Of a DNA stretch of 64,000 bases, positions 1,049 to 45,926 are shown piece after piece (positions within the stretch are counted from its first letter, which is position 1; each line of letters starts with the position of its first letter). The DNA is taken from assembly GCA_028715965.1 (NCBI GenBank), contig JAQUQS010000001.1, forward strand, positions 164,188-228,187, in the 5' to 3' direction. The position numbers and the translations under genes were made by a program. The notes below the pieces were generated by a model that made no database searches, had not been told where the DNA came from, and saw nothing but the letters and a program-made list of their open reading frames with translations. Source of the DNA: Candidatus Omnitrophota bacterium. Its GTDB lineage: Bacteria; Omnitrophota; Gorgyraeia; Tantalellales; Tantalellaceae.

Positions 1049-4000
1049 TTACGCGCGTATCAGTATCTCGTTGGTACGGTCGTATATCGCCTTCAGCTCC
1101 TGGACATCGAACGGAACTATGGGTAGCGACTGTATGAGCCTGTTAAGCGACATCACGATGACCCGTATCTCCGCGGATGTAGCCATCTCGATAAGGTCTT
1201 TCTTGGTCAGGCTTATCTTAGAGACATCCTGTCCCTGGGATATACACAGGTCAACATACTGAGCCAGGGTATATGACAGGAATTCGCTGTCCTCACTTTT
1301 ATAATTATCATTAGAGGCGATCTCGGAAAGCCGGAGCCCGAGCATAACGCTCCTGATCACACCGGTCTCGTCGTAATTAGCGCCTATGGGTGAAAGTATG
1401 GTATCCTCCGGCGACATGTTCCCTATGTGCCAGTTCCTGTCCCTGTGCCCACTGGTCGACAATGTTTCGCCCTTGAACACGGGGAAGATCGTGACCGTGT
1501 TGGCGCGCGTCCTGTTGCCGTTCACGTTCGTGAGCTCATCAGGAAGCTCCTTATATTCCAGGTCACCGTACTCTTCTCTGGAAACCTCAGTTATATTATC
1601 GGTATTGTAAAGCTCCACGAAAGCGCGTCCTCCTGAAAGAGCCTGTATATTATTGAGGAACTCTATTACCTCTTTCTTGTTCATGCTGGTATCCAGCTGC
1701 TGTTTCGGCACCCTTATAAGTTTATAACCGTTCTCCCCGGGCCTGAAGATATGGCTCAGGAACCCTACGTTATCCTCTACGAACGTTTCCATGCCTTTGT
1801 CCGGGGAAGCGGTATAGGCCTGGTCTCCCGCATCGGATATAAGTCCGCTGAGGAAAGTCAACTCATCCCCGGATATCTCCAACCCCATTGAGGCCACAGA
1901 GGTCTCCCCCTCTGTATGGTCCGAGGATAACCGTTCTATCTTGCTGTATAAAGTATCCAAGCTGATAAGACCTTTATAAAAACTTAAAAGCGTATATCCA
2001 CCGAAAATATCCGGATCCCGCTCCACCCACCTTACATTCATTTCCCCGCCATATGTCCTGAGCAGTCTGGGGCCACTGGCCACTACCGAGTCAGGGATAA
2101 GACCCGTGAAAGGAGCTGTTTTAGCATGCTCTTTTACGACCTTTTCCATGGCATCGAGCGACGTTCCGTCGTATTTATCGTTGAACTTGATCGCGTCCTC
2201 ATCCGATAACACTACGGAAATATCGTTGAACCTCAAGCCACCAAGGTTTATCACATAGTCCACATACCCCGGAAGGGCCAATGTCCAATCTCCCTGTTTT
2301 ATTTCCTGCAGGACGACATCCTCTACGCGTCCGTCGGAGGCGTATCTGACATTGACCTGCACCCCATGGCCCTCCGTAACGTATTTTATGTCCAGCTTGT
2401 TCCCCTGGAAATGCCCCGCGCCCGTGGACGTTGACTGTACGCTACCCGGAAGAGTATCATTCACGAAGAACGTCTCGTGCAATGTACTTATCTCTCCGGC
2501 ATTCGTAGCCTCCAGTATCCCCTGTGGGACCGACACGAAGCCATGGTCCATAAGATACATGACATCCTTGTCCTGTCCGTGTTCGAAAACCTGTCCGGAT
2601 ATCTTGAGTTCTTCGAGTATATTACCCTTTAATTTCGAGCTTATGGTCTCCACGCCTCTCCAATAGAAAAGAGGAGCTCCTTCCACCCTGTTATACGGCC
2701 TGACGTCCCCACCGGGAAGGTTCGCGTCCTCGAGAAAGCTCGGGCCACGCTTCTTATCGCTGGCTACGGCCATATCTCCGGCCTTTACCGTCAACCTGAC
2801 CTTCTCAGAGTTAAGCACTCCCCTCCTCATCCACGAAAGCACGGTAAGGAATTGGCCGGTCATTATCTGCATCTCACGGCTTGTACGCGCGCTATCCTCG
2901 CCGTTAGGGGAAAATTTCCGCGTTTTTTCTATTATCATCTGGGCGAAATACCTGGAATTGCCGACAGTATTATTGTCTCGTGAGTACGCTTCAAGGAGGT
3001 TGTTAAGTATTCCCGCCACTATAGGCAACCTGTTCTCGGTCACCTGGAAACCCTGGCTTGAAAATATGGTCTTTACCGCGCCCGGGACATCGCCGTTCAC
3101 CACAAGGCCAGAGGCTTCGTGGACGACTCTTTCCACGTCGTTCATCTCCGGCAATGGTTTGGATACCTCGGCAAAAAGGCTTTTGTTCCTTTGTTCCATT
3201 TTTTTCATCTTCTCTTTTGCTTCCTGCCTGGCTTCCCGTTTTCTTTTGTTGCTGATAGCCTTGCTGAATTCACGAAGATACGCCGCGGCGGTAAGCCTGG
3301 CTTCAAGCCCACGGCTGAGGCGCACGGAAGTCGCCTGGTATTCCTTCAAAGTATCATCATTATACTTGTCATGCAGAGTAAGTAAAGCCTTAAGATACGT
3401 ACTCGAGTCCGCGTCATGGATCACATATTCCTTCTCATCCTTCCATATGGTACGCGTGTTCCATTCTGACGCCCCGGGTGTTAACACGTTGCCTACTCCC
3501 GGCCGGTTAAGGTCCATAAGCAATCCCTGGGCCTGGAAAAGTCCTTCGCCGACCTTGTTATCCGTACGCAATGTCCCGACCTCTATGCCGCCGCAGGCGG
3601 ACACATCCGCCTCGGTAAATCCCGCGGCCTCGGTCGACGGATATGAATCCTGTACCTGCACGTCCGTCGCCGCCAGGAGCTGCCTCTGCTCGTCAAGGCT
3701 GAACCTGGGAACAAATACGAATCTTCCCAATGTTCTTGCTTTCCCGGGGTCCTCTGAGATCATTCTCTTTTTCATTTCGGAGATCTCACGCACAAGTTTC
3801 TTCAGGTCCTCCTTAAGTTTATCGCTATCATCGTTGTTAGATTGCACGTTCCCGTAGATGACCACCTGTACGCCTTTCATTACCAGCTCTTTCACGTTCG
3901 CGTTATCGAACGCGCCTCTTGAATCCGTTCCGGACCCCAGAGTGAAATTACCACCGTTGGTATGATTCCCACCCCTGCCGGCTTTCTCCCTGACCAGGCG

Positions 4001-6664
4001 TCCGGAATACGATACGACCATCTGGTCGTTCCGTAGCATCGCCTCACCCTCCTGTAACAAAGGAGTATCCCCGCCGCCCGGCAGACCCTCGGTGGTATAG
4101 ACATCCTTTTCCCTGGACACGCTGAGCCTCTCCTTGGCCGTTTTTTTGGTCTGGTATACCTGTTCCGCCGTAGGATGCTCTATATCCGCGTTATCGCCAA
4201 AAAGCTCCTTCATGTACCTGATGAAATATTTCATGGTGTTCCCTCTATGGTCTCCGTTGGAAACGGCCCTGAGGTCGAACTCTATGCCCATATCGCTGTA
4301 ATATCTTCTCAGGCTCTCTTTCTTCGGGTTGTTCACCCACTGGTCATATACGACCACATCGTCCCTGTGCGCGCGGGCGACCGCGCCCTGCCAATCGCTG
4401 GACCTCAGCCCGGCCGAAGCCATGTCATAATCCATTCCGAAATTCATTTCGAACAACTCACGATACCCCTGGGGTATGCCCATGAAATCCAGCACCTTGT
4501 CCCCATACCTGTCCTGGGCGTTCCGGGAATATGACTTCCTGTTGCCGTACGTATGCGTGGTGAACGCGACCGTCATTTCCCTCAGCACACGGTCCACCTC
4601 GAAACGCGGGTTTTCTTCCGCCTTTGCCAGCTGTTCCTCAAGTTGTATTTTCCTGTATACGGAAACAAGCGCTGTCTGGGAATCGTTCAAATGAAGTATA
4701 GGAGCTTTCCAGTTGGCTTTATCCTTCATTTCCCTTGCCTCTTCCCTTTTGACGAACTCGAGGGCGGCACGGGAATAAAAAACGGAGAATTCTTCCCATG
4801 TCGGAAGATACGGTGTCTTATCGGGGCTGTACGCGTTCTTGTAGTTGTACAATGAATGCGTGTAATAACTCTCACCGTTGGGCTGTATGTCCCTCACAAG
4901 ATACACTTCTATGCCAAGATCGTTCATCCCCTTACTTACAAGCACATCTACTTCCTTGCCACCCACGGTCACCTTGAATCTGTCCACCTCTTCTATCTTA
5001 CCCAGGATCGGATGGGTCAGCTGCTCCGGGTTCGTATAATCCAGTCTACGCGGATCCTGATCAGGGCTTATACGGTACTGGTAATGCGGTTCGATATGTT
5101 TAAGCCTCGCGCCGGACCCGCGCATGAGTTCCTGCATACCAGCGCCGTGATACTGCATGACCCTGGCCAATCCGCCGGCTTCGTGCCATATCTCCGGCGA
5201 TATCTGCCACAATGTCCTCCCCTCCAGCTCCCTAGCGAATTTCCTTATCCAGTTGCGGTCTATCCAGTCCTTGAACTTCTTAAAAAGCCCGTTAAGCTGT
5301 TTCATAAGGGCATCCCTGTCGATATCAGCCGGCACCAGCATCAGCAATATCTCATCCGCTATTATCATGTCACGATATTCAGAGTTTTCCGGGGCGATAA
5401 GTATCCCCATCAGCTTTTCCTGGTCGTTCTTATCGAGCAGGTTCACCGCTTTTTTAACGGAATAGCTCCTTTCCACCGGATAATGCGGTTCTCCTAAGAT
5501 CACATCGTTCATTATGGATATCGTATCCAGAAGTTCGCCCATGTCGGGGGCGTTTATCATCCTTTGAAGCTCATCCCTGAGGGAAAAAACATCATCCTTC
5601 GCCATCGCGCTCCTGATGGCCCCCGTTCTTTTGGCGGTACGGTATACAAGGTCCATCCTCGCCCTGTATGCGTCATCCGCATCATGGCCCAGCCCATATA
5701 TGTGTAGAAGCTCATCATTATCCAAAAGCTCGGTCCGTACCCCCTCGTTCTCCGGTTTAAAAATATCCTTAAGCAGTATGCTTCCTATATATATGACCCC
5801 GTCCCTTGTCCCGGCGTGGGAGATATTCGTGTGTTCCTTGTCGTCGTTCCATCCTATAGCTACGTCACCAAGAACGGCCCTGAAACGTACCGGCGCCCCG
5901 CGTATCTTATGCTCTTCCATCCATTCTCTTATGGCGACCGCCTCACGTTCGGTAAAAAGCTGGGTTATATCTATTTCTTCTCCGAGGTAAAGCTCCTGGG
6001 ACGTTATCCTGGGCACATAACCTTTTACCCATTTGATCCTTGTGGCCCTGAGCACTCCCGTATCTTCATCCAGATATACCTCAGCCACCTTACCATCCTG
6101 TATAAGTGCCTCTATCATGGGATCGGTGGAAGGCGCGTACATCCCCTTAAGATCATTGTCCAGATCGGCGGCGTCCGGACGGGTATCCTTTTCAACGAAT
6201 ACCGCGAACTTATCACCGCTCTGCCAGCGGCTATCCGTACGGGCATAGTGTTCCCCCAACCTGCCGTCACAAAGTACGGCAACGCCTTTTTCTCCTGACA
6301 GAGAAAAATATATCTCCACCCTGCCGCTTTCCTCCACGACAGAGTCTATGACTATATCCTTTTCCCGCAGGAAATCCGGAGCGGTCTTCAGATATCCAAG
6401 CAAAGCTTTCTGTACGCTTTTTTCTCTGGCCTGGGGATCAAGATAATGCTCGGCTATGGAAAAGAATATGCCAAGTATCTTCCCTTCCGAGTAGATATTG
6501 TTGCGGAAATCAGCTGACCCTTCGGTCGGAGCAAGCTTACCACATATAAGCGGAGGAGTTATGTTTATATTGTCCGTGAAACCGTATATCGTAGAGTTGA
6601 GTAGGAAAGTTAGGAGCGTGATACAGACTATCGCGCTTCGGAAAAGACCTGCTTTTTTGGGCAT
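1049..6664 (-). CDS. Giant (1871 aa) secreted or cell-surface protein of unknown function. It has an N-terminal Sec signal/anchor and no domain I can recognize with confidence.
   Basis: An uninterrupted 5.6-kb ORF. Its N-terminus MPKKAGLFRSAIVCITLLTFLLNSTIYG has signal-peptide n/h regions. A good SD precedes the ATG at 6664 (GGAAGGGGAG-5 nt-ATG). A central segment (SYPSTEAAGFTEADVSACGGIEVGTLRTDNKVGE) loosely resembles the GT-B / glycogen-phosphorylase-synthase nucleotide-binding motif but lacks the PLP lysine. Confidence 0.85.
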   Translation of the reverse strand: MPKKAGLFRSAIVCITLLTFLLNSTIYGFTDNINITPPLICGKLAPTEGSADFRNNIYSEGKILGIFFSIAEHYLDPQAREKSVQKALLGYLKTAPDFLREKDIVIDSVVEESGRVEIYFSLSGEKGVAVLCDGRLGEHYARTDSRWQSGDKFAVFVEKDTRPDAADLDNDLKGMYAPSTDPMIEALIQDGKVAEVYLDEDTGVLRATRIKWVKGYVPRITSQELYLGEEIDITQLFTEREAVAIREWMEEHKIRGAPVRFRAVLGDVAIGWNDDKEHTNISHAGTRDGVIYIGSILLKDIFKPENEGVRTELLDNDELLHIYGLGHDADDAYRARMDLVYRTAKRTGAIRSAMAKDDVFSLRDELQRMINAPDMGELLDTISIMNDVILGEPHYPVERSYSVKKAVNLLDKNDQEKLMGILIAPENSEYRDMIIADEILLMLVPADIDRDALMKQLNGLFKKFKDWIDRNWIRKFARELEGRTLWQISPEIWHEAGGLARVMQYHGAGMQELMRGSGARLKHIEPHYQYRISPDQDPRRLDYTNPEQLTHPILGKIEEVDRFKVTVGGKEVDVLVSKGMNDLGIEVYLVRDIQPNGESYYTHSLYNYKNAYSPDKTPYLPTWEEFSVFYSRAALEFVKREEAREMKDKANWKAPILHLNDSQTALVSVYRKIQLEEQLAKAEENPRFEVDRVLREMTVAFTTHTYGNRKSYSRNAQDRYGDKVLDFMGIPQGYRELFEMNFGMDYDMASAGLRSSDWQGAVARAHRDDVVVYDQWVNNPKKESLRRYYSDMGIEFDLRAVSNGDHRGNTMKYFIRYMKELFGDNADIEHPTAEQVYQTKKTAKERLSVSREKDVYTTEGLPGGGDTPLLQEGEAMLRNDQMVVSYSGRLVREKAGRGGNHTNGGNFTLGSGTDSRGAFDNANVKELVMKGVQVVIYGNVQSNNDDSDKLKEDLKKLVREISEMKKRMISEDPGKARTLGRFVFVPRFSLDEQRQLLAATDVQVQDSYPSTEAAGFTEADVSACGGIEVGTLRTDNKVGEGLFQAQGLLMDLNRPGVGNVLTPGASEWNTRTIWKDEKEYVIHDADSSTYLKALLTLHDKYNDDTLKEYQATSVRLSRGLEARLTAAAYLREFSKAISNKRKREARQEAKEKMKKMEQRNKSLFAEVSKPLPEMNDVERVVHEASGLVVNGDVPGAVKTIFSSQGFQVTENRLPIVAGILNNLLEAYSRDNNTVGNSRYFAQMIIEKTRKFSPNGEDSARTSREMQIMTGQFLTVLSWMRRGVLNSEKVRLTVKAGDMAVASDKKRGPSFLEDANLPGGDVRPYNRVEGAPLFYWRGVETISSKLKGNILEELKISGQVFEHGQDKDVMYLMDHGFVSVPQGILEATNAGEISTLHETFFVNDTLPGSVQSTSTGAGHFQGNKLDIKYVTEGHGVQVNVRYASDGRVEDVVLQEIKQGDWTLALPGYVDYVINLGGLRFNDISVVLSDEDAIKFNDKYDGTSLDAMEKVVKEHAKTAPFTGLIPDSVVASGPRLLRTYGGEMNVRWVERDPDIFGGYTLLSFYKGLISLDTLYSKIERLSSDHTEGETSVASMGLEISGDELTFLSGLISDAGDQAYTASPDKGMETFVEDNVGFLSHIFRPGENGYKLIRVPKQQLDTSMNKKEVIEFLNNIQALSGGRAFVELYNTDNITEVSREEYGDLEYKELPDELTNVNGNRTRANTVTIFPVFKGETLSTSGHRDRNWHIGNMSPEDTILSPIGANYDETGVIRSVMLGLRLSEIASNDNYKSEDSEFLSYTLAQYVDLCISQGQDVSKISLTKKDLIEMATSAEIRVIVMSLNRLIQSLPIVPFDVQELKAIYDRTNEILIRA

Positions 6665-7848: not shown

Positions 7849-9240
7849 TTGTGCCGCCACGATATATCATCGTTACATATGTGGCTGGAAAAACTCTTTA
7901 AGCTCAAAGAGAACGCGACAGACATACGGACCGAGGTCCTGGCCGGCACCACTACCTTTATGACCATGGCATATATCATCTTTGTCCAACCTGCCATACT
8001 GTCACAATGCGGAATGGACTTCAACGCCGTAATGGTAGCCACCTGCGTTTCAAGCGCCATAGGCTGTTTCCTGATGGGTCTTCTGGCCAACTATCCTATA
8101 GCCCTGGCTCCTGCCATGGGCCATAACGTATATTTCGCCTTTGTCGCCTGTCCGATGATAGCCGGCATATTAGGTCCGGGCAGCGATATCGCGCCGTGGC
8201 GCGTAGCGTTAGGCGCGGTACTCTTATCAGGCATGGTCTTTATCTTCTTCTCTTTCTTCGGCATAAGAGAGCGGATCATCAAGGCCCTTCCGGTCTCCAT
8301 AAGGAACGCTATAGCTGTCGGCATAGGCCTTCTTATAACCTTGATCGGGTTCGAATGGTCGGGCCTGACCGTTCCGGACAAGTCCATCTACCTTACTCTG
8401 GGAAAGCTGAACTCGGCACCGGTGCTCTTATCTCTTTTTGGGCTCGTAGTGATATCTTCGCTGATGGCAAGAAAAGTGAGAGGGGCCATACTTATCGGAA
8501 TGGTCATTACGGCCGCGGCGGGGACCACTTGCGGGATAATCCGGTATTCCGGAATAACAAGTTCGATACCTTCCATCAGCCCCACTTTCATGAGATTGAG
8601 CTTTTCCGGCGCGCTGGATATGGGGTTCCTTGAACTTATCTTCGTGTTCTTTTTCCTGGACCTTTTCGACACGGTCGGGACGCTTATAGGCGTGTCCGAA
8701 AAAGCCGGCTTCATGAAGGACAATGAGCTTCCGAGGGCCAAACAGGCGCTTTTCGCGGACGCGACCGCTACGGTAACGGGAGCCGTGCTCGGCACTTCTA
8801 CCGTAACAAGTTATGTGGAAAGCGCTTCCGGGGTATCGCAGGGCGGCAGGACGGGACTCGCTAACGTGGTAACGGGTCTTTTAATGCTTCTGGCCCTTTT
8901 CTTCCGTCCGCTTATAGCCATGATCGGCACCAGCCACATGACCGCGGACGGCCTTCTCCTCTATCCGGTGATCTCACCGGTACTGATCATCGTTGGATGC
9001 ATGATGATGAGCTGCGTCAAAAAAATAGACTGGGACGATCTTACGGAAGCTATCCCCGCTTTTCTCACCATAGCGGTAATGCCCTTCTGTGGGTTCAGCA
9101 TAACCGAAGGCATTTCCTTCGGGTTCATCTCATATGTGATACTGAAGACCGTCTCCGGAAAGATGCGGGAAATACCGGCATTTTTATCCCTGTTCGCCGG
9201 GCTTTTCATACTAAGATATATCTTCATGTTCGCGAGATGA
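7849..9240 (+). CDS. NCS2-family nucleobase permease of the AzgA/PbuG type (adenine/guanine/hypoxanthine permease).
   Basis: A multi-TM protein (~12 predicted helices) with the characteristic LAGTTTFMTMAYIIFVQPAIL and ATVTGAVLGTSTVTSYVESASGV segments of AzgA-like permeases. The true start is probably M11 (7879, MWLEKLFKLKEN). Confidence 0.75.
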   Translation: MCRHDISSLHMWLEKLFKLKENATDIRTEVLAGTTTFMTMAYIIFVQPAILSQCGMDFNAVMVATCVSSAIGCFLMGLLANYPIALAPAMGHNVYFAFVACPMIAGILGPGSDIAPWRVALGAVLLSGMVFIFFSFFGIRERIIKALPVSIRNAIAVGIGLLITLIGFEWSGLTVPDKSIYLTLGKLNSAPVLLSLFGLVVISSLMARKVRGAILIGMVITAAAGTTCGIIRYSGITSSIPSISPTFMRLSFSGALDMGFLELIFVFFFLDLFDTVGTLIGVSEKAGFMKDNELPRAKQALFADATATVTGAVLGTSTVTSYVESASGVSQGGRTGLANVVTGLLMLLALFFRPLIAMIGTSHMTADGLLLYPVISPVLIIVGCMMMSCVKKIDWDDLTEAIPAFLTIAVMPFCGFSITEGISFGFISYVILKTVSGKMREIPAFLSLFAGLFILRYIFMFAR

Positions 9241-9260
9241 TCCCGCGAAGTTGTTCGTGT

Positions 9261-9959
9261 TCAACGCACGAGGCCCTCTATATCCTTGGTCGCCTGCCAT
9301 ATCTTTCTTATGCTATCAGCCCTTTGTTTGAAAGCGGAGAGCACTTTGGGGTCGAAATGTGAGCCGCTTTGGGTAGCGATAACATCCATCGCGTCCCGGA
9401 TATCCATAGCCCGTTTATAAGGCCTTATGGAGGTTAACGCGTCAAAAACATCCGCCAGGGCCACGATCCTTCCAAAGACAGGGATCTGGTCACCCTTCAG
9501 CCCGTTGGGATACCCGGTACCGTCATACCTTTCATGGTGTGTAAGGCAGATCTCACAAGCCGCCATCAACAACGGCGATCTGCTGCCCATAAAGATATCC
9601 GCTCCCAACTCAGCGTGTTTTTGCATTATCTCTCTTTCCTCGGGAGTAAGGCTGTCTTTTTTCTTGAGGATATTATCAGGTATCAACAGTTTGCCTATAT
9701 CATGCATGGGGCTGGCATACCTTATTATCTCAACATTATCCGCGTCAAGCCCCATACCCCTGGCTATCTCCGTGGAATAATCGACGATCCGTATAAGGTG
9801 TGTCCCCGTATCCTCGTCCTTATGCTCCGCCAGGAGGGCCATACGGAAGATCATTTCCTCATACGATCCTTTTACCGTATCATATGCCTTCCTCAGACTC
9901 TCTTCCCTTACGGGCCCGTCAGGCGGACCATTCACGCCAAAAATGCTATCGCTGTTCAT
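9261..9959 (-). CDS. Stand-alone HD-GYP domain protein (predicted c-di-GMP phosphodiesterase).
   Basis: An HD motif (PMHDIGK) and a GYP motif (HHERYDGTGYPNGL) are both present. Its start overlaps the upstream STAS gene by 14 nt. Confidence 0.8.
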   Translation of the reverse strand: MNSDSIFGVNGPPDGPVREESLRKAYDTVKGSYEEMIFRMALLAEHKDEDTGTHLIRIVDYSTEIARGMGLDADNVEIIRYASPMHDIGKLLIPDNILKKKDSLTPEEREIMQKHAELGADIFMGSRSPLLMAACEICLTHHERYDGTGYPNGLKGDQIPVFGRIVALADVFDALTSIRPYKRAMDIRDAMDVIATQSGSHFDPKVLSAFKQRADSIRKIWQATKDIEGLVR

Positions 9960-10302
9960 AGTGCCCGCCTGTCATCTGGGCCAGCGCTTCCTCCTGCGTT
10001 GGGCATATGCTTAATATCCGGTCAAGTTTGGTTATCCTGAACAAGGATTCTATCTTGGGCGGAACGTCAGATATCCTCAGGTCCCCCTCCAGGGAGCTGA
10101 TGCTCTTGGAAAAACCGGCAATTGCCGCGAGCCCCATACTGTCGATGTAATCCACCTCGCTCAGGTCTATGACCACCCTGTTGATCCCGCGCTTAATAAG
10201 TCCCCTGAATAAATTACGTATAAGGATGATACTGTCTATCATTATCTCTCCCTTGATACTGCATATCGTCACGCCGCTTCTATCATGTGTTGCTATTTTC
10301 AT
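9946..10302 (-). CDS. STAS-domain anti-sigma-factor antagonist (SpoIIAA/RsbV-like).
   Basis: The protein is 118 aa and carries the conserved phosphorylatable-serine motif VDYIDSMGLAAI in a typical STAS fold-length sequence. Confidence 0.75.
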   Translation of the reverse strand: MKIATHDRSGVTICSIKGEIMIDSIILIRNLFRGLIKRGINRVVIDLSEVDYIDSMGLAAIAGFSKSISSLEGDLRISDVPPKIESLFRITKLDRILSICPTQEEALAQMTGGHYEQR

Positions 10303-10311
10303 TTTATTCCC

Positions 10312-11751
10312 TTATACGGTGGTCGCGGTATGTTGATCGGCGTCGCTATCTGAAAATTTATAAGACATATACTCATTCCACATTTTCTCAAAACCGGTCA
10401 TCGACACGAAGAACTCTTCGTCTATAGCGTTGGCGAAGTGTGTTTTGTCTTTTATACGACCGAGCAGGCTCCGTAAACCAGGCCAGCCCCATTTGTCTAT
10501 AATGAATGAGATAGCGGCAAAAGCCGCTTGATAGTACACCTTTATCGACAACTGTTCCGAATAATCAACAAAACCCTTTTCGACAGCGCCGATCTTGAAA
10601 TATTTGCGCCCTTTTACCTCGCTGGCGAGTTCAGCCATGTTTATCGGGGCGTACCGGGCTTGTTCATATACCGCAAGGCCCTCATGTATCCATATGGGAC
10701 AATTACCGTTCGTCGTCATCGAAAGTATAGCATGAGTATATTCGTGGGCAAGTATACCCGCGAGCTCTGACTTGCTCACCCTGGGATCCACGGGCATCCG
10801 TATATTGCCGTCGAAAAAACCCCTGACTATACCGGTCTTCTGGAATATTTCCATAAAGCTGTTCGGGGTATAAAAGATTATCTTAGTATCCTGTGGCGGG
10901 TAAAAATCCAGGTCCGTGCCCACTTTTTCATATATATCCGACAAAATATCCTTGAGCTCATCTTTGTTGAAATCATAGACATCCTCGAACTCCACCTCGA
11001 AGAACGGAAGCTCGATCTTGCCGAGCCGACCGCTAAGCTCTCTTTCTTTTATGGCCTTCTCGAGTTTGTCCATTACTTCCTGGTTCTCCGGATGTGTCTG
11101 GACATATTTGGTCCAATAAAAAATGGCCTTGTCCAGCCTATCCTCCCGGTAGTGGACCTGTCCCAGGAAATCCAGGCACTCATCGCGCGGCAACATCGCG
11201 TAGGAGATGTTCAGGAGCGTAAGCGCGTTACCCATATCGTTACTGTTGTAATACTCTACGGCCTCGTTATACAGGTAGTTAGCTACGTTCTTGCGGGCCA
11301 GGTCCGACATCATGGCCAATTCCGAGGCTTTCTGCATATATTCATACGCGCCTTCACGATCGCCGGCTTCCAGCACTTTCATCGCTTCTTTAACATAGAG
11401 ATACGACAGGTTGGACAATACCCCTTTATTGGTGTTGTCCATCTCGAACGCCATTTCAAGATAATATATGGCTTTTTTTATGTTACCGGAACGGTCAAGA
11501 TAGTCTGAGTATTTGATGTATCCGTAAAGCAGGTTTTTCCTGATATCACCGCTGTCAGGAGCTCCCTCGTAAGCCTTGTGAAGGTAAAATATCGCTTTAT
11601 CATACTTACCTTCGTCTATGTACGCCTGGCCCTTCCTGACATATTCATAAAGCCCGGTACTGGATGGATCGCTCTCGCATCCCGTTATAAAAGAACACAA
11701 TAACAGGCCCGACAATACAGGCACCCACATCCTATGCATAAAATGTACCAT
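10312..11751 (-). CDS. Lipoprotein with TPR repeats and a C-terminal HExxH (peptidase MA-like) zinc-metallopeptidase motif.
   Basis: The N-terminus has a lipobox (LLLCSFITGC). TPR-like repeats occur at roughly residues 40-230 (AYIDEGKYDKAIFYLHKAYE...). The metallopeptidase motif is HEYTHAILS...IHEGLAVYEQ. Confidence 0.7.
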   Translation of the reverse strand: MVHFMHRMWVPVLSGLLLCSFITGCESDPSSTGLYEYVRKGQAYIDEGKYDKAIFYLHKAYEGAPDSGDIRKNLLYGYIKYSDYLDRSGNIKKAIYYLEMAFEMDNTNKGVLSNLSYLYVKEAMKVLEAGDREGAYEYMQKASELAMMSDLARKNVANYLYNEAVEYYNSNDMGNALTLLNISYAMLPRDECLDFLGQVHYREDRLDKAIFYWTKYVQTHPENQEVMDKLEKAIKERELSGRLGKIELPFFEVEFEDVYDFNKDELKDILSDIYEKVGTDLDFYPPQDTKIIFYTPNSFMEIFQKTGIVRGFFDGNIRMPVDPRVSKSELAGILAHEYTHAILSMTTNGNCPIWIHEGLAVYEQARYAPINMAELASEVKGRKYFKIGAVEKGFVDYSEQLSIKVYYQAAFAAISFIIDKWGWPGLRSLLGRIKDKTHFANAIDEEFFVSMTGFEKMWNEYMSYKFSDSDADQHTATTV

Positions 11752-11768
11752 AAATCAGCCCGGACCCG

Positions 11769-12149
11769 TTATCTGTCCTTTTCAAGTTCTTCTTTCTGCA
11801 TGGCGTCAAGATACGCGTCTACCTCGGCCATATCCTGAAAAACACATGTTTCGGGCAGGGCCTTGAGAATATCGAAAACTTTCTTTATCTGTGGTTGAAG
11901 GCCGGTCATCATGAACGTACCGCCTTTGCCTTCCGTTATGCGACGGGCCTTGAAAATAACGCTTAATCCGTCGCTACTTACGTAGAAAAGGCCTTTCAGG
12001 TTCATCACTAATCCCCTAAGGTCGGCAAGGCCCAGAATAGGGGCCAATCTTTCATCAAGTATCGTATAGGTATCGGAATCCAGACTGCCTTCCAGAAATA
12101 TAAGATAGATCTTGCCAGGCTGCTCTTTTATCTCTATTTCAAATGACAT
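11769..12149 (-). CDS. Second STAS-domain protein (anti-sigma-factor antagonist-like).
   Basis: The protein is 126 aa. GKIYLIFLEGSLDSDTYTILDERL...VSSDGLSVIF has the STAS pattern with a DSxG-like element. An AT-rich promoter-like region lies upstream (12150-12249). Confidence 0.6.
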   Translation of the reverse strand: MSFEIEIKEQPGKIYLIFLEGSLDSDTYTILDERLAPILGLADLRGLVMNLKGLFYVSSDGLSVIFKARRITEGKGGTFMMTGLQPQIKKVFDILKALPETCVFQDMAEVDAYLDAMQKEELEKDR

Positions 12150-12249
12150 GATGGCCTCCTCAAATTGGGTAGCGCCTTTTCATCCACAGTATACCGACAC
12201 TTTATTTTATATTAAATAAATATAAAAGTCATCCAAATAGAGCGCTCTC

Positions 12250-13197
12250 TCACATGACCGGCGGAATGGCTCCCTCAGTCTTTTTCCTGCCTTTTTCCCG
12301 CTGCGCGCGTACCCAGTCCAGCACTTTGTCGATCACCGTTCTGCGACTGGCCTCGAGCAATTGCATCCCTTTTTCGTTAAGCTCAGCTATATCATCCCAT
12401 ATTTCCCGTGATTTCAGAAGCGAGAACACTATGCTGGGCGACATGTCGGGATTGACCCCGACAAAAGTCCTTCTTGCCTCTCTCGTATACCCCGTTTTTC
12501 CCCATGGAGCGGTACTCCCCTTGAAAAGGCTCTTATTGTGGGTCTTCAAATGTATCTTTCTACCGTCACTTCCGGATATATAAGCTTCTTTCCTGGACAT
12601 ATTCTCAAGTATTTCCGGATAACGTATCGCATACCTCATCATCGCGGCAAGGTCCTCGGCCGTAGTATACTGGGCATCTTTTCTCCCGGTAGGGAGACCG
12701 GAAGCTTTAATGAAATTGGTATTGGTCATTCCGATCTCCCTGGCTTTTTCATTCATAAGTCCGGCAAAAGACCGTTCATCTCCAGAAATAGCTTCAGCTA
12801 TGGCAAAAGCCGCGTCATTCGCTGATTTTATAAGCATGGCCGAAATAAGGTCCCTTACCTTATATCTCACGCCCACCTTCAACCCTATTATGGTCGGCTC
12901 AACATGGATAACGTCCTTTCCCGGGACCACGTCATCATCAAGCCCGAGCTTCTCGATGGCCAATATACACGTCATCACCTTGGCCGTGGACGCCGGCGGG
13001 AATTTGGCTTGTGGATTCTTAGCGTACAGTATATCCCCCCGGGCGGCATCCATTATCACCGCCCCTCTTCCGTTAACCTTGACATCTATTCCATCTTCCG
13101 CGCCAAATACCTCACATGGCATTGAACTGAGAACTATAAGGATATACGCGACAATGCCCCTGACTATATCTATCCTGAGATTCTTTTCCCGCATCAT
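12250..13197 (-). CDS. dacC: D-alanyl-D-alanine carboxypeptidase (class A low-molecular-weight PBP, S11 family).
   Basis: It carries an SxxK motif (PASTAKVMT) and a KTG motif (WGKTGYT), plus an N-terminal signal peptide. The ATG overlaps the stop of the upstream radical SAM gene (ATGA). Confidence 0.8.
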   Translation of the reverse strand: MMREKNLRIDIVRGIVAYILIVLSSMPCEVFGAEDGIDVKVNGRGAVIMDAARGDILYAKNPQAKFPPASTAKVMTCILAIEKLGLDDDVVPGKDVIHVEPTIIGLKVGVRYKVRDLISAMLIKSANDAAFAIAEAISGDERSFAGLMNEKAREIGMTNTNFIKASGLPTGRKDAQYTTAEDLAAMMRYAIRYPEILENMSRKEAYISGSDGRKIHLKTHNKSLFKGSTAPWGKTGYTREARRTFVGVNPDMSPSIVFSLLKSREIWDDIAELNEKGMQLLEASRRTVIDKVLDWVRAQREKGRKKTEGAIPPVM

Positions 13198-14519
13198 AGA
13201 GTAGCCGTCGATCCTCCTTTCCTTTTTCTTCTTATCCGTTTCAGGGACGGGTTAAAATATCCGTTCATGATCGAAGGATATTCCTTCTTGATCTTCCCGA
13301 TGACCTTATCCATGCCGAGCATCTCCCGGGAAGATATGGCTACCCCCAGTTCGTTCATGTAACGTATCGGGTCGTAGTTCAAGTTCCTCCATTGTATCAT
13401 ATCCGTTCCCGGTCCCGACAGGAAGCGGGATAATGCTTTTTCTTCCCTGATCCAGTCGGAAAATCCAGGCATAACAAGGTAATTTATCGATACAAACCCT
13501 CTTTTTTTCCGCATACATCTTATCGACCGCATGACATCACCGAAAGTATATCCCACGGGCCGGTAATACGCGTTGTAATACCTCTCCTGAAAACTGTTCA
13601 CGCTGACCCTTATTGAGTCCAATCCGGCATCTATAAGCCGGGAAACCATATCGGGTCTGCTGCCGTTCGTGTTGATGTTTATTATACCCTTTGACGTCCC
13701 TTTTCTTATCAAGGATACGGCCCTCACGAGAACATCCCCGACCATCAACGGTTCCCCTTCGCATCCCTGGCCAAAACTCACCACAGGGTCAGCTACCCTG
13801 CTTATATGATGCAACGCCACTTCAGCGATCTCTTCCGGGTCCGGAACGAATTTTATCCGAGGTTGCGTGACCGAGCATTTTCCCCCTTCCTGATGGGATA
13901 TGCACCCGATACAACGCGCGTTACACAACGGGGAAGATGGAAGTGGCGCTTCATACCTGTTGAGAAAGAAATTCTTCGCGGCGGGGCATCCATAAGTAAG
14001 CGCGCACGTCTCCAGATGTCTTACCAGCCTGTTACGGGGCAATATCCTCCTCATCTTCTTCACCCCGTCGCAAAGCCCTGTCCGATCCATTCCTCCAAGC
14101 TCTTGCCTTTTTTCGCGATCAACACGTATCCCGGCGGCATAAAACCCACCTTTATAGAACGCTACGGCCGCGTAACTGAAAAGGGGAAGATGTCCCGCGC
14201 CTTTTCTCTCAACATACGAAGCGTTATAACGCAGGGTATACCCGGGGGACATGAACGCGGCAACGGCGTAACACCGCCTGGCCTTCCGGGAGAACGGATC
14301 AGTGGCGACCTCCGTCATCTGCCCGGTATCATCGCTGAAACCAACGGCACTTCTGGATGGAAGCATAAAAAGTTCGCTGTCGCTATGCAGTTTTACAAGA
14401 TCACGTGCCCTGAGCGGGAAGAAAAGACCGGACTTCATCCCGGTAGCGCGCATCCCGGGCACATCGAATATCCTGCCTTTTTCGTCAGCTACCAATAACG
14501 ATGGTATTTCCTTTTTCAT
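13194..14519 (-). CDS. Radical SAM protein of an uncharacterized subfamily, with an N-terminal extra domain.
   Basis: The CxxxCxxC motif is CNARCIGC. The ORF track extends to 14603, but a start at M29 (MKKEIPSLL, 14519) removes an 83-nt overlap with xth and leaves a 2-nt gap. Confidence 0.7.
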   Translation of the reverse strand: MKKEIPSLLVADEKGRIFDVPGMRATGMKSGLFFPLRARDLVKLHSDSELFMLPSRSAVGFSDDTGQMTEVATDPFSRKARRCYAVAAFMSPGYTLRYNASYVERKGAGHLPLFSYAAVAFYKGGFYAAGIRVDREKRQELGGMDRTGLCDGVKKMRRILPRNRLVRHLETCALTYGCPAAKNFFLNRYEAPLPSSPLCNARCIGCISHQEGGKCSVTQPRIKFVPDPEEIAEVALHHISRVADPVVSFGQGCEGEPLMVGDVLVRAVSLIRKGTSKGIININTNGSRPDMVSRLIDAGLDSIRVSVNSFQERYYNAYYRPVGYTFGDVMRSIRCMRKKRGFVSINYLVMPGFSDWIREEKALSRFLSGPGTDMIQWRNLNYDPIRYMNELGVAISSREMLGMDKVIGKIKKEYPSIMNGYFNPSLKRIRRKRKGGSTATL

Positions 14520-14520
14520 A

Positions 14521-15285
14521 TTATCGTATGCGCTCGATCTCCATGCCCACCGGGCAATGGTCCGACCCGTCCACCTCGGGCATAAGAAAAGCGTCCTTGA
14601 CATGCGGCACCATGGCGCCTGACACGAAAAAATAATCTATACGCCAGCCTACATTCCTGTCCCTGGCCCTGCTTTTATAGTCCCACCATGTATATTGTCC
14701 GGGCTGGTCGTTATAGCTCCGGAAGATATCGACATATCCGGCTTCCACCAACTTATCCATCCATTCACGCTCGATGGGAAGGAACCCGGAATAATTCTCG
14801 TTCGCCTTAGGCCTGGCAAGGTCTATCTCCTTATGGGCCGTATTGAGATCCCCGCATATTACGACCTTACGACCGGTAAAACCGCCGAGATGCTCTAGGA
14901 AATGCCTATAGAATTCCATTTTGTAATCCAGCCGGGACGCGTTCATACGCCCGTTAGGAAAATACCCGTTGATCAGCACAAAACCGCCCATATCAAGCTC
15001 AAGTACCCTGCCCTCCGTGTCGAACCCTTCCGGACCGAAGTCCGTGCTTACCGCGACCGGCTCTTCCTTCGTAAAAACACTGACACCGGCATAACCTTTT
15101 TTCTCAGGATTATTCCAGTATCTCTTATACCCCGCCCAGGTTGCCGAGAACTCCTCTACCTGCTCGGGATATGTTTTGGTCTCTTGAATACACAGGATAT
15201 CGGGGGCATTCTCGTCAAGCCACTTATTAAAGCCTTTTTTTACGATGGCCCGCAGGCCATTAACGTTCCATGAGAGTATTTTCAT
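14521..15285 (-). CDS. xth: Exodeoxyribonuclease III (AP endonuclease, Xth/ExoA family).
   Basis: The N-terminus is MKILSWNVNGLRA. The conserved ...DIFCLQETK...GDLN... and C-terminal SDHCPV motifs are present. Confidence 0.9.
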   Translation of the reverse strand: MKILSWNVNGLRAIVKKGFNKWLDENAPDILCIQETKTYPEQVEEFSATWAGYKRYWNNPEKKGYAGVSVFTKEEPVAVSTDFGPEGFDTEGRVLELDMGGFVLINGYFPNGRMNASRLDYKMEFYRHFLEHLGGFTGRKVVICGDLNTAHKEIDLARPKANENYSGFLPIEREWMDKLVEAGYVDIFRSYNDQPGQYTWWDYKSRARDRNVGWRIDYFFVSGAMVPHVKDAFLMPEVDGSDHCPVGMEIERIR

Positions 15286-15286
15286 T

Positions 15287-15943
15287 TCAGGATGGCGAAC
15301 GGCCGGGAGCGAACGCGTTATTCACTGAGGCTACATATTCCTTTATCATGCCCCCTATTGACCGGAAATCTTTTTTGTCGATCAATTCTTTTTTAAAAAC
15401 ACTCGATCCAAAAGCTACAGCGTCAGCGCCACAGGCGGCGTATTCAGCTATGTTCGCGGGCCTCACGCCCCCTACCGCCATTAGACGGACATCATTGAAA
15501 GGCCCTTTTAGTTCTTTCATGTATCCCGGCCCGAAAAGTCCGGAAGGGAATATCTTTACCATGCTGGCCCCGCAAGACCAGGCCTTGAATACCTCTCCGG
15601 GCGTTAAAGCGCCGGGGAACACCGATATACCCCTTTTCACGCATTCCCCGATTATCCCTTCATCCACGACCGGGGTCACGATAAAACCCGCCCCGGCGTC
15701 CAGCGCTGTTTCCAGCCGTTCCCGGGATGTTACGGTACCAGCACCTATCATCAGTTCTTTCCCGGACATATCTATGATCTTCCTTATCATGTCCGCGGCG
15801 CTACCTGTGTTCATCGTTACCTCAAGCGTTTTGATCCCGGAGCTCACGGCGGTCTCGATAAGAGGCTCTACCGCATCCTCCGGTATGCCCCGGACTATGG
15901 CCATCAGTGGAAAAGCGGCAAAACGCTCTAGATCGAATCTCAT
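15287..15943 (-). CDS. eda: 2-dehydro-3-deoxyphosphogluconate / 4-hydroxy-2-oxoglutarate aldolase (KDPG aldolase).
   Basis: The protein is 218 aa with ...IVRGIPEDAVEP...KTLEVTMNT...GAGTV...GFIVTP... typical of Eda. It overlaps the upstream gene by 4 nt. Confidence 0.8.
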   Translation of the reverse strand: MRFDLERFAAFPLMAIVRGIPEDAVEPLIETAVSSGIKTLEVTMNTGSAADMIRKIIDMSGKELMIGAGTVTSRERLETALDAGAGFIVTPVVDEGIIGECVKRGISVFPGALTPGEVFKAWSCGASMVKIFPSGLFGPGYMKELKGPFNDVRLMAVGGVRPANIAEYAACGADAVAFGSSVFKKELIDKKDFRSIGGMIKEYVASVNNAFAPGRSPS

Positions 15944-24900: not shown

Positions 24901-25285
24901 TCGACGATGGGAGTTTGCCCGTCGGTCCGATAGACCCTACGACAAACCTGCCATGGGAAGGCGACGAATGTTCATCTGCGGCTTTACGCGCCAGAAGCGT
25001 GGCGCTCCTATTTATATCATAAACTTCTTTTTCCAGGCCATAATCGGCGAGCTTAAGGTAGTTGGCCCCGAAAGTGTTGGTTTCCACAGCGTCGGCCCCT
25101 GACGCGAAATAATCATTATGTATACGGGATACCAACCCGGGGCTGGATATTGAAAGATAGTCCATACACCCGGTCCTTCCTCCGAACATGGCCTCATCCA
25201 GCCCGATCGAAGCCGCGTATGTGCCGAACGCCCCATCCAGGAGAATGATCTCTCTCCTCATCTTATCCGCGAACGTAATGCTCAT
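21908..25285 (-). CDS. metH: Cobalamin-dependent methionine synthase MetH, full length: Hcy-binding, pterin-binding, B12-binding and AdoMet reactivation domains.
   Basis: Colinear domains are present: N-terminal Hcy S-methyltransferase (ILLDGAFGT), pterin-binding, a B12-binding DxHxxG motif (DVHDIGKNLV), and a C-terminal activation domain. Its likely start is M14 (MSITFADK, 25285), which forms an ATGA overlap with the batE stop; the ORF track extends to 25324. Confidence 0.9.
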   Translation of the reverse strand: MSITFADKMRREIILLDGAFGTYAASIGLDEAMFGGRTGCMDYLSISSPGLVSRIHNDYFASGADAVETNTFGANYLKLADYGLEKEVYDINRSATLLARKAADEHSSPSHGRFVVGSIGPTGKLPSSSDPTIGNISYARLAEVFAEQARGIIDGGADAVLIETSQDLLEMKAAYAGIRTALSDRRKDLPILAQCTLSNNGRMLLGTEVSAVMAVMSALGAASVGINCSTGPVEMESHIKFLSDNCPVSISCIPNAGLPVERDGCTVYPLGPDEMAAILAGFLEKYRIDLIGGCCGTTPLHIKAIRKELKRRKPKDTRTRVFCAGSYRGYDVDMMDRPIKVGERINTQGSKAAKRMFIEKDMDGLVELGKSQERSGADILDVCAVLTERDTEKEDASRIVKRLAESVDTPLMIDSTDEDVLKGALESYPGTAFINSVNLEDGGGRADRVFSLAQKHGAFVVNLSIDKDGMAKTVEKKVSVASRLYDMAVNGHGIHPRRLLYDLLTFTLGTGEKEYASSAMDTIEAIRVFKKKCPGAATILGVSNISFGLPKEARKKLNMVFLHHAVQAGLDYAIVNPMEYVKYEDIDKDDAAICEDLIFMKKEDALQRLLERYQDRKGSERSVSSSDLACRVSVEKCVFDRDKVNIIPALEEALKEKSAEEILNGTLMEAMRKVGEALDRGDTVLPFVLQSAEVMRKAIEHLKVYMPKGTSGEKGKILLATVFGDVHDIGKNLVKMILENNGFTVIDLGKQVPVDVIIREAVKNKVDAVGLSALLVSTARYMRTCVQAMHDAGLHYPVMIGGAPTNEKFAREIEVLSDGTRYPGGVFYSRDAFTGLRIVRALMDGGMELSADVKGRTSPGRSTTVPSTGVPRAEVEGKKAPEVLTGNDIPEPPFYGTRVLANIPLDEVFTYLDEKMVFNAAWGSYLADKGRRNELLDKEYRSMLKELKEESVRKGWLDMKAVYGYFECVVNGTVMDVMDGLGRPAEKIDFSVAGGRSIAGYFHPRDIVAFQAVTLGSKISEAIKAMQDSGDGTRSFLLHGMSVHLAEALAEYVHSRIRKELGLSEDQGRRYSPGYALWPELEDQKKIFKLLEIERNLDIHLTEACLMVPEQSTTAIIVHNPKAEY

Positions 25286-26040
25286 TTTTTTAATACTCTT
25301 TCTACCGCGGAGTCTTTTATCCACGCGGATTTCCCGTCAGAACGCCTTGCCCTGACCCATCCGTCCTTACTGTTGATTATATTCACCTTCATACCTTCGT
25401 TCAGGGTGAAGAATTTGGTGGCCGAATCAAATGGCCCGTATAGCGCCTCTACCGCCGGGACCATGACAATAGCGGACGTTCTCTCGTTCACCGCTTTATG
25501 CCAGGCCAGGAAGACATTAAAAACAAGTATTATGGAGAAACATATCAAAATTGTCCTGTGATATCGTGTAACCATCCTCCCCGTTACACCTATAGCCAAA
25601 AGAACAAGGATCACTATCATGGAAACGGACGCCACAATGGTCATCTGGTCCACGCTTAATGTTCTCTCATACACCCGTAAAGGCGTCCAGTTCCACACTC
25701 CTTTTTCCGGCACTACCTTAGCTTTTATATCGGACCTGGCGAACCTGTAATTTGCTCGTATATCAGCATCTCTTGGATCCAACGCTAACGCCCTCTCATA
25801 GTTAAGGATGGCCTTGCCCAGATTTCCCGATTTGAAATATGCCCCCGCCAGGTTGTAATATATGTTAGGGCTTTTCTTCCCGGAGGACAGTATCTTCTCG
25901 TATCCGGCTATCGCCCCGGACCAATCAGCCTGTTCATACTTATCGTTAGCGGACGAGAAAAGTTCGGCCGTTGTCTCCGCCAGGCCTCTACCGGCGGTCA
26001 ACATCAAAATAGCCAGAGATAGTACGATCATCTTCTTCAT
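25282..26040 (-). CDS. batE: BatE-like protein (TPR repeats, TM segment, C-terminal SH3b-like domain) of the aerotolerance-type Bat operon.
   Basis: It has a signal peptide, TPR motifs (YYNLAGAYFKSGNLGKAILNYERALALDP), an internal TM segment, and a C-terminal GMKVNIINSKDGWVRARRSDGKSAWIKDSAV (SH3b-like). It is the last gene of the Bat cluster. Confidence 0.65.
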   Translation of the reverse strand: MKKMIVLSLAILMLTAGRGLAETTAELFSSANDKYEQADWSGAIAGYEKILSSGKKSPNIYYNLAGAYFKSGNLGKAILNYERALALDPRDADIRANYRFARSDIKAKVVPEKGVWNWTPLRVYERTLSVDQMTIVASVSMIVILVLLAIGVTGRMVTRYHRTILICFSIILVFNVFLAWHKAVNERTSAIVMVPAVEALYGPFDSATKFFTLNEGMKVNIINSKDGWVRARRSDGKSAWIKDSAVERVLKK

Positions 26041-27887: not shown

Positions 27888-27940
27888 ACCTCTTGATCCA
27901 CCGTAAGTATTCTCCTATCCAAGACCCTCTTATATCATCG

Positions 27941-28906: not shown

Positions 28907-28922
28907 TTTACCCTCTATATCT

Positions 28923-29936: not shown

Positions 29937-29937
29937 G

Positions 29938-31904: not shown

Positions 31905-31919
31905 GCTTACATACCTCTT

Positions 31920-32822: not shown

Positions 32823-32855
32823 AAATGATCACTTTATGGTCCGATACGCGGACCG

Positions 32856-33848: not shown

Positions 33849-33870
33849 CTCAACCTCCTTGCTTATATTT

Positions 33871-33905
33871 TTACAGTATAATATTGATACTATACAACAA
33901 ATAAA
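33871..33905 (-). promoter_or_regulatory. Putative promoter of the moxR-bat operon (TATACT/TATTAT -10 region with an upstream TTGTTG/TTGTAT -35 candidate).
   Basis: AT-rich sequence ttgttgtatagtatcaatattatactgtaa (minus strand) lies immediately upstream of the moxR SD. The exact boxes are ambiguous. Confidence 0.35.
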
Positions 33906-33954
33906 AACCTTTTTCAAGAAGACGTGTTAACGACTATTTTTATTTACGTTAATA

Positions 33955-44880: not shown

Positions 44881-44893
44881 TCTCCTCCAGTGA

Positions 44894-45922: not shown

Positions 45923-45926
45923 GGAT

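Follow-up and report, generated by a model that had tools for sequence, protein, structure and literature searches.

We analysed a 64-kb stretch of DNA from a Candidatus Omnitrophota bacterium (contig JAQUQS010000001.1; hereafter the window), in which four neighbouring genes encode two STAS-domain proteins, here named STAS1 and STAS2, an exported lipoprotein combining TPR repeats with a gluzincin-type peptidase domain, and an HD-GYP protein, a predicted phosphodiesterase of cyclic di-GMP (c-di-GMP). Comparative analyses showed that only the STAS2 and HD-GYP genes stay together across Omnitrophota, as an adjacent and often overlapping pair whose members co-diverge. This conserved adjacency suggests that STAS2 controls the enzyme, and STAS1 and the exported TPR-gluzincin look like local additions rather than conserved partners of the pair. 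Enzymes of c-di-GMP turnover are usually regulated by fused sensor domains, and it is not obvious what input stand-alone HD-GYP proteins receive. If a STAS protein is their conserved partner, this would account for the control of a whole family of such sensor-less phosphodiesterases.

A preliminary description of the locus had reported an operon of four genes of these types, the last of which overlaps its neighbour by 14 nt. Coordinates and domain matches confirmed this layout: all four open reading frames (ORFs) lie on the minus strand, and the overlap is exact. The features of the cluster are as follows:

11769–12149, minus strand: STAS1, 126 aa (PF01740, E=2.7e-10)
10312–11751, minus strand: lipoprotein with TPR and Peptidase_MA_2 domains, 479 aa (TPR_14, E=6e-12; PF13485, E=1e-11)
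9946–10302, minus strand: STAS2, 118 aa (PF01740, E=3e-19)
9261–9959, minus strand: HD-GYP protein, 232 aa (HD_5, PF13487, E=7e-39, 133.8 bits), with no second domain
9946–9959, minus strand: overlap of the STAS2 stop and the HD-GYP start, exactly 14 nt
12150–12249, minus strand: AT-rich spacer of 100 bp located 5' of STAS1, with two sigma70-like matches (12232–12204 and 12215–12188) and a GAGGAGG ribosome-binding site

The STAS1 and peptidase genes are separated by 17 nt and the peptidase and STAS2 genes by 9 nt, and translation of the HD-GYP gene is likely to be coupled to that of STAS2 through their 14-nt overlap. The sigma70-like matches in the spacer are consensus matches only and no proof of a promoter; the spacer is probably the start of a four-gene transcription unit, and it is plausible from this spacing that the four genes form a single one.

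The STAS2–HD-GYP gene pair across Omnitrophota

To compare the pair between genomes, loci were gathered by ortholog context and by scanning metagenome contigs with a DNA pattern for the C-terminal motif IWQATKDI of the HD-GYP protein. The scan returned 19 loci, comprising 12 with true orthologs (one of them incomplete) and 7 chance DNA matches without an HD-GYP gene. A STAS2 ortholog was located directly upstream of the HD-GYP ortholog (at least 55% identity) in 11 of 12 complete loci, and the 11 paired loci represent about 9 well-separated lineages:

Paired loci: the window; L008/L088 (the complete Omnitrophota chromosome CP070807.1); L089=L098; L113/L114/L091; L094; L095=L106; L097; L099; L102=L107; L103; L109

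The STAS2/HD-GYP junctions in these loci measure −14, 12, 4, 37, −11, −11, 40, −11, −11, −4 and −11 nt, so that the two genes overlap in 7 of the 11. The genes flanking the pair varied among the sampled lineages, and the pairing was retained down to 31% identity of the STAS proteins and 55% identity of the HD-GYP proteins. The two proteins were also found to co-diverge, as their pairwise identity matrices are correlated (r = 0.89, Mantel p = 2e-4). STAS2 orthologs were recovered exclusively beside HD-GYP orthologs.

As a control, we inspected 80 HD-GYP-centred loci (±8 kb) among the matches listed for generic HD-GYP motifs in GTDB species representatives. The sole STAS-bearing locus of the 80 was L008, which is itself an Omnitrophota ortholog, and a STAS gene was found within ±8 kb in none of the 79 HD-GYP loci without this ortholog, nearly all of which belong to other phyla. 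The adjacency is therefore specific to the sensor-less HD-GYP family and far above background. The preliminary description had suggested that the STAS proteins might regulate c-di-GMP turnover, and for STAS2 the contrast between 11/12 and 0/79 supports a link with the HD-GYP protein. STAS1 belongs to a separate subfamily (16% identity) and occurs in other contexts, which speaks against a single unit of all four genes. Comparison of STAS neighbourhoods, which had been proposed there, thus divided the two proteins, with STAS2 orthologs beside HD-GYP genes and STAS1 homologs in differing surroundings.

STAS2 is a single-domain protein of the SpoIIAA/RsbV type that scores above the cut-off of the TIGR00377 model (65.5 bits). 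Its profile matched TM1442 and SpoIIAA best. In the alignment Ser55 falls on Ser59 of TM1442, the residue that is phosphorylated there, and the surrounding STAS2 motif D54-S55-x-G57 was unchanged in an alignment of 11 orthologs. The public gene call for STAS2 (P0259, 98 aa) begins at Met21, but when 10 orthologs are aligned they favour the longer 118-aa form, which starts at 10302 and includes the first beta-strand.

The HD-GYP protein carries neither a sensor nor a receiver domain and consists of a long N-terminal helix (residues 16–47) followed by an intact catalytic core. H54, H86-D87, H115, H141-H142-E143, D170 and the motif G149-Y150-P151 were unchanged in 32 orthologs. Its best 120 matches, which are 54–100% identical and 220–256 aa long, contain HD_5/HD domains only, indicating that the protein is stand-alone throughout the family, whose members are 54–69% identical to the window protein. 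The AlphaFold2 model (predicted local distance difference test, pLDDT, 86; predicted template-modelling score, pTM, 0.81) has the N-terminal helix at lower confidence. Among solved structures the nearest is that of PmGH, an active c-di-GMP phosphodiesterase (4mcw; E=2e-53, 43% identity, TMq 0.82), the second-best solved homolog is the cGAMP-specific V-cGAP3 (E=1.7e-36), and PA4781 (4r8z) and c-di-GMP-bound DvhD were matched further. By these features the protein is predicted to be a catalytically intact c-di-GMP phosphodiesterase, with its substrate taken from homology. PilZ, MshEN-PilZ and REC-PAS-HD-GYP genes are present in related contigs, and by this gene content c-di-GMP signalling appears to exist in Omnitrophota.

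The surroundings of the pair differ from lineage to lineage. Small ORFs of about 150–190 aa that flank the pair were considered as candidates for RsbW-like kinases and rejected, as they encode TPR, SNase, phosphoribosyltransferase, M48 peptidase, PP-loop and acyltransferase proteins instead. In two other Omnitrophota lineages, and only in these, genes for an extracytoplasmic function (ECF)-type sigma factor and a zf-HC2 anti-sigma-like protein lie just downstream of the HD-GYP gene. They form a block with the genes for a PDZ protein and a 177–179-aa protein of unknown family, beginning about 120 bp 3' of the pair, at the following positions:

L089:6843–9722, L113:7828–10634 and L091:12248–14066: sigma/zf-HC2/PDZ block

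A small TPR protein (153–156 aa, TPR_12/TPR_10) is encoded directly 5' of the STAS gene in L094 (1846–2307, minus strand) and L099 (247–717, plus strand), the two genes lying 1 nt apart or overlapping by 4 nt. In L008, L090 and L097, too, there are TPR genes next to the pair or to the HD-GYP gene; as TPR genes are very common in these genomes, this may be due to chance. A block of NYN_YacP, Dus, Maf, radical-SAM and DUF6873 genes occurs in the window at 42480–46421 (minus strand), 30 kb from the pair, and in L089 (1451–5553) directly upstream of it. This shift shows that the pair has moved freely relative to otherwise conserved blocks.

STAS1, the lipoprotein and the surroundings of the cluster

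STAS1 scored below the cut-off of the TIGR00377 model (E=1.8e-12), and its profile matched SpoIIAA structures (E=2e-16). Among 27 aligned homologs the C-terminal motif LQPQIKKVFDI..ALP..VF.D..E.DAYLD.MQK is strongly conserved, and Ser59, which aligns with SpoIIAA Ser58, was unchanged in 19 homologs. Profile alignment of the STAS1 and STAS2 families with hhalign gave 98.7% probability at 16% identity. By these profiles STAS1 is assigned to a subfamily distinct from that of STAS2, and a recent duplication giving rise to the two genes is ruled out by the 16% identity.

The genomic contexts of STAS1 homologs also differ from that of STAS1 in the window. The closest ortholog (L110, 49% identity), in another Omnitrophota metagenome-assembled genome, is the last gene of its operon and comes after a radical-SAM gene orthologous to that of the window (E=1e-164), and another homolog is solitary in its contig. 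The radical-SAM protein of the window (13194–14603, minus strand, 469 aa) has weak MoaA-like matches, and its ortholog is located at L110:651–1928; a 98-aa protein is encoded between the radical-SAM and STAS1 genes in L110, and an S11 carboxypeptidase-like gene occupies this position in the window. In two distant lineages, STAS1 homologs are convergent with Mla-like ABC operons (L115:6001–7533, and about 5001–9200 in L116–L119). A REC-HD-GYP response regulator is encoded between the STAS1 homolog and the Mla operon in L115. In L116–L119 a single 415-aa protein joins the Mla ATPase to a GGDEF domain (ABC_tran + GGDEF). Such an architecture is unusual, and it would couple the transport of lipids to the synthesis of c-di-GMP. 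These contexts are hints that the STAS1 subfamily may be linked to c-di-GMP or envelope-lipid systems, in a sample too small to carry weight. Unfamiliar ORFs beside the STAS1 homologs were inspected and none of them was a kinase. STAS1 did not match the MlaB model (mlaB_1), and Mla genes are absent from the window.

The lipoprotein begins with a signal peptide with the lipobox ITGC (Cys24), continues with TPR repeats over about 200 residues and ends in a Peptidase_MA_2 domain (HEYTH ... WIHEGLA), which scored 45.5 bits against a PF13485 cut-off of 32.4. About 42 full-length orthologs were identified at 30–46% identity, the closest being P0002 (46%). HEYTH and the Glu of the downstream third-ligand motif (W-x-x-E-G/A-x-A) were unchanged in 42 orthologs, and the protein is therefore probably an active gluzincin. 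The lipobox was seen in the window copy and an N-terminal hydrophobic anchor in most orthologs. In the AlphaFold2 model (pLDDT 90.6), a TPR superhelix is followed by an alpha/beta peptidase domain, and the fold matched TPR proteins and, weakly, collagenase G in the PDB.

Peptidase orthologs in four other Omnitrophota contigs (P0017, P0029, P0009 and P0005) had no STAS or HD-GYP neighbour. The genes around them encode instead a two-component pair on the upstream side and, downstream, a second TPR protein, a propeller-like protein and ComEA/ComEC; or FabD and rubrerythrin; or HMGL and an aldolase. A 124-aa ORF that follows the peptidase gene in L001 was considered as a STAS gene and proved not to be one. 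The peptidase of the window is placed outside the cytoplasm by its lipoprotein signal peptide, and STAS1, STAS2 and the HD-GYP protein are taken to be cytoplasmic, as no signal peptide or membrane segment was apparent on reading them. Regulation of a periplasmic protease by the STAS proteins, which had been raised in the preliminary description, is thus not supported, in view of the location of the peptidase and of the orthologs without a STAS neighbour. Nor did any other STAS2–HD-GYP locus contain a homolog of STAS1 or of the peptidase.

Upstream of the cluster are the S11 D-Ala-D-Ala carboxypeptidase-like gene, the radical-SAM gene and an ExoIII-like nuclease gene, and downstream of it is a convergent xanthine/uracil permease gene. 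Named homologs of the peptidase, the HD-GYP protein and STAS1 come almost throughout from Omnitrophota, and identical copies of window proteins (P0112 and P0232) occur in a metagenome-assembled genome labelled 'Candidatus Omnitrophica bacterium'. Pfam scans covered about 50 non-overlapping ORFs of the 64 kb, with a 300-aa partial ORF at 2–901 left out. Neither a HATPase_c_2/RsbW-type kinase nor a SpoIIE/PP2C phosphatase or a sigma factor was detected among them, so that the lack of a kinase and a phosphatase noted earlier for the operon holds for these ORFs as well. A STAS hidden Markov model run over the window matched STAS1 and STAS2 only and thus revealed no third STAS gene, and no riboswitch or other Rfam element was detected at E<=1 in 8800–15600.

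Further features of the window and of related contigs were noted in passing. A Bat/MoxR-type aerotolerance-like operon at 25282–33917 (minus strand) comprises a MoxR AAA_3 ATPase, DUF58, two VWA proteins, TPR proteins, BatD and a TPR-SH3 protein. A 1871-aa ORF at 1049–6664 (minus strand) contains a starch-synthase-like domain only. Giant ORFs of 2799–3505 aa were found in related contigs (L113:1–4963, L089:1–1329 and L003:9367–13410), where they fuse sugar-metabolism domains (PEP-utilizers_C; glucosamine isomerase with GH77; PfkB with hexokinase). Giant multi-enzyme proteins seem typical of these genomes.

A possible role for the pair and the alternatives

The best reading of the cluster is that three evolutionary units, namely STAS1, the TPR-gluzincin and the STAS2–HD-GYP bicistron, have come to lie side by side in this particular lineage, and that they are probably co-transcribed in this organism. 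On this best reading STAS1 was historically tied to the upstream radical-SAM gene and the TPR-gluzincin gene was mobile. What the analyses show directly is the identity of the genes, that their motifs are intact, that the pair is conserved and co-diverges, and that the other two genes are not conserved with it.

As for function, we infer binding, its gating by phosphorylation, the direction of the effect and the substrate. STAS2 would act as a detachable regulatory subunit of the HD-GYP protein, gated by phosphorylation of Ser55, and we give this idea about an even chance of being correct. In one phosphorylation state of Ser55, STAS2 would bind the HD-GYP protein, plausibly at its exposed N-terminal helix, and change its activity; in the other state it would release the enzyme. 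Both proteins are small and soluble-looking. Because both STAS families keep a phosphorylatable serine, a kinase and a phosphatase are expected elsewhere in the genome, and these would sense signals that are thereby converted into c-di-GMP degradation. More broadly, STAS2 and the HD-GYP protein might constitute a two-protein, phosphoserine-gated enzyme of c-di-GMP degradation, conserved at least within a part of Omnitrophota, with STAS2 in place of the receiver domain of RpfG-type proteins and, in this lineage, with a second STAS protein recruited to the operon. We advance this fuller proposal tentatively and regard it as possible, somewhat short of probable. The recruited STAS1 could provide a second input or compete for the same kinase or phosphatase.

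Several observations weigh against control of the enzyme by STAS2. The HD-GYP ortholog P0180 (62% identity) has CutA1 upstream and no STAS gene, and therefore the HD-GYP gene can exist without an adjacent STAS gene. Nine of the other ten paired loci were found by means of IWQATKDI (the corresponding motif in L008 is IWQATKNI), and the unpaired P0180 ends in KIWKSKRQV, so the proportion of 11/12 may describe a subclade rather than the whole family. No STAS–HD-GYP fusion protein was present among the 150 best STAS2 representatives. A kinase or phosphatase was found neither among the window ORFs scanned nor at any orthologous locus examined, leaving phospho-gating without identified enzymes. At the active site, the third-metal ligand of PmGH, which we take to be Glu185 in agreement with the 6-residue offset of chain 4mcw_A, aligns with Asp50 of the window protein and with Ser, Thr, Cys or Ala in orthologs. 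Since this Glu is not conserved in the family, the site may have two metals, as PA4781 does, and either c-di-GMP or pGpG may be the preferred substrate. Finally, conserved adjacency can also mean co-regulation without binding.

Such co-regulation is the core of a conventional but split partner switch, in which STAS2, and perhaps STAS1, would be an ordinary anti-anti-sigma factor, the RsbW-type kinase, PP2C phosphatase and sigma factor would be encoded elsewhere, and the HD-GYP protein would be merely co-expressed, lowering c-di-GMP upon induction of the regulon without any contact. This explanation fits the close relation of both STAS families to SpoIIAA, RsbV and TM1442, the retained phosphoserine position and the score of STAS2 above the anti-sigma-antagonist cut-off of TIGR00377, and STAS genes located apart from kinases are common (review PMC8256260). 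Co-expression, however, poorly explains why an overlapping pair co-diverges while its flanking genes change, it leaves unexplained why a STAS neighbour is limited to this sensor-less HD-GYP family, and neither a kinase, a phosphatase nor an RsbW-type anti-sigma factor was found at the loci examined. We therefore consider a split partner switch rather unlikely. Where an ECF sigma factor does occur, STAS2 could instead act on that factor and its zf-HC2 partner 3' of the HD-GYP gene, a pair that the window lineage would have lost or moved. The order STAS, HD-GYP, ECF sigma (Sigma70_r2/r4_2), zf-HC2, PDZ and 179-aa protein in L089/L098 and L113/L114/L091 would agree with this. Yet the order is limited to two of about nine lineages and is absent from the window, L008, L095 and L102 (3–8 kb of downstream sequence), the sigma gene is separated from the HD-GYP gene by a gap of about 120 bp, and known STAS antagonists act on HATPase-type anti-sigma kinases rather than zf-HC2 proteins. 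We consider this explanation very unlikely.

Two further alternatives concern the enzyme and the cluster as a whole. The HD-GYP protein may not act on c-di-GMP in vivo, being instead a phosphodiesterase for 3'3'-cGAMP (3'3'-cyclic GMP-AMP) or pGpG, or a phosphatase that resets phosphorylated STAS2 and so forms with it a self-contained couple of substrate and enzyme. That V-cGAP3 is the second-best solved homolog, that the third-metal Glu of PmGH is not conserved and that no PP2C phosphatase was found nearby are consistent with such a role. Against it, PmGH is the best match by a wide margin, followed by PA4781 and c-di-GMP-bound DvhD, and the GYP motif and all core ligands are unchanged; we know of no HD-GYP protein that dephosphorylates proteins, and a different activity appears very unlikely. 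The preliminary description had combined all four genes into one non-canonical signalling unit, which in its strongest form would run from the envelope to the cytoplasm, with the two STAS proteins connecting the exported TPR-gluzincin to c-di-GMP turnover. The co-directional genes with their short junctions and single promoter-like spacer, the TPR proteins adjoining the pair elsewhere (directly 5' of the STAS gene in L094 and L099, nearby in L008 and L097), and the presence, in two distant lineages, of STAS1 homologs next to c-di-GMP enzymes and to Mla transporters of envelope lipids would all suit a single unit. However, only STAS2 and HD-GYP stay together across Omnitrophota: the peptidase occurs in four other Omnitrophota without either neighbour, other STAS2–HD-GYP loci lack the peptidase and STAS1, and the four genes are not found together even in L110 and L113, where the nearest relatives of STAS1 and the HD-GYP protein, respectively, are encoded. 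The peptidase is exported, whereas the STAS proteins are taken as cytoplasmic, and with at least five TPR genes in the window the adjacency of TPR genes is not clearly above chance. The four-gene arrangement is thus probably not a general system, and its action as a single signalling unit is improbable.

Comparison with known systems

Both the fold and the D-S-x-G phosphoserine motif of STAS2 are those of the classical partner switches SpoIIAA/SpoIIAB/SpoIIE and RsbV/RsbW/RsbU, and its best PDB sequence matches are TM1442 and SpoIIAA. The window system differs from them in that neither the operon nor the scanned window ORFs encode an anti-sigma kinase of the HATPase type, a PP2C phosphatase or a sigma factor. 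STAS1 invites comparison with MlaB of the MlaFEDB transporter (PMC7367683), as two distant members of its subfamily are located beside Mla-like ABC operons; unlike mlaB, these STAS genes are convergent with the Mla operon and not inside it.

The catalytic domain of the window HD-GYP protein is the same as that of RpfG-type proteins, the NosR-family NF053512, PmGH (4mcw) and PA4781 (4r8z), with the core metal ligands and GYP present. RpfG, NosR and PA4781 carry a covalent N-terminal REC domain, and PmGH also has an N-terminal regulatory domain, whereas the window family has none and a STAS gene stands in its place on the chromosome. The window family further departs from PmGH in its third-metal Glu, which is not conserved.

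The nearest functional parallels come from Pseudomonas aeruginosa, where SiaC binds the helical stalk of the diguanylate cyclase SiaD and thereby activates it (PMC8457831, PMC7647112) and HsbA, an anti-anti-sigma factor, binds the diguanylate cyclase HsbD (PMC5085249). A link between STAS proteins and c-di-GMP enzymes has also been predicted from co-occurrence in Campylobacterota (PMC9239204). As in the SiaABCD system, a small, potentially phospho-switchable partner is encoded beside a c-di-GMP enzyme in the window, and the direct binding by which SiaC controls SiaD is what we propose here by analogy. In SiaD the stalk bound by SiaC lies ahead of the catalytic domain, and the AlphaFold2 model of the window HD-GYP protein also has a long N-terminal helix. 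The two systems differ in that SiaD makes c-di-GMP through a GGDEF domain, whereas the class of the window enzyme degrades it, and in that the Sia operon includes the kinase SiaB and the PP2C phosphatase SiaA, counterparts of which were found neither in the scanned window ORFs nor at orthologous loci. STAS2 is a canonical PF01740 STAS protein, whereas SiaC is only STAS-like.

HsbA, like STAS2, is a STAS protein of the SpoIIAA/RsbV type, and it has a c-di-GMP enzyme as output partner, beside or instead of an anti-sigma factor. HsbD is nevertheless a cyclase, and HsbA is under the control of the adjacent HsbR kinase/phosphatase and the HptB phosphorelay; at the window locus there are no such adjacent regulators, and the STAS2 gene overlaps that of the enzyme.

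Our literature search found no paper linking STAS with HD-GYP proteins and none on partner-switch components in Omnitrophota. The Omnitrophota are a widespread and mostly uncultivated phylum with very small cells, for which the pair would provide a first testable signalling module. STAS-type control of c-di-GMP enzymes is already known for cyclases, and a phosphodiesterase with a STAS protein as its conserved partner would vary this principle in a new way. If the proposed control is correct, it would be, as far as the literature found goes, the first partner switch controlling c-di-GMP degradation, and partner-switching would extend from its known targets, sigma factors and two diguanylate cyclases, to c-di-GMP breakdown.

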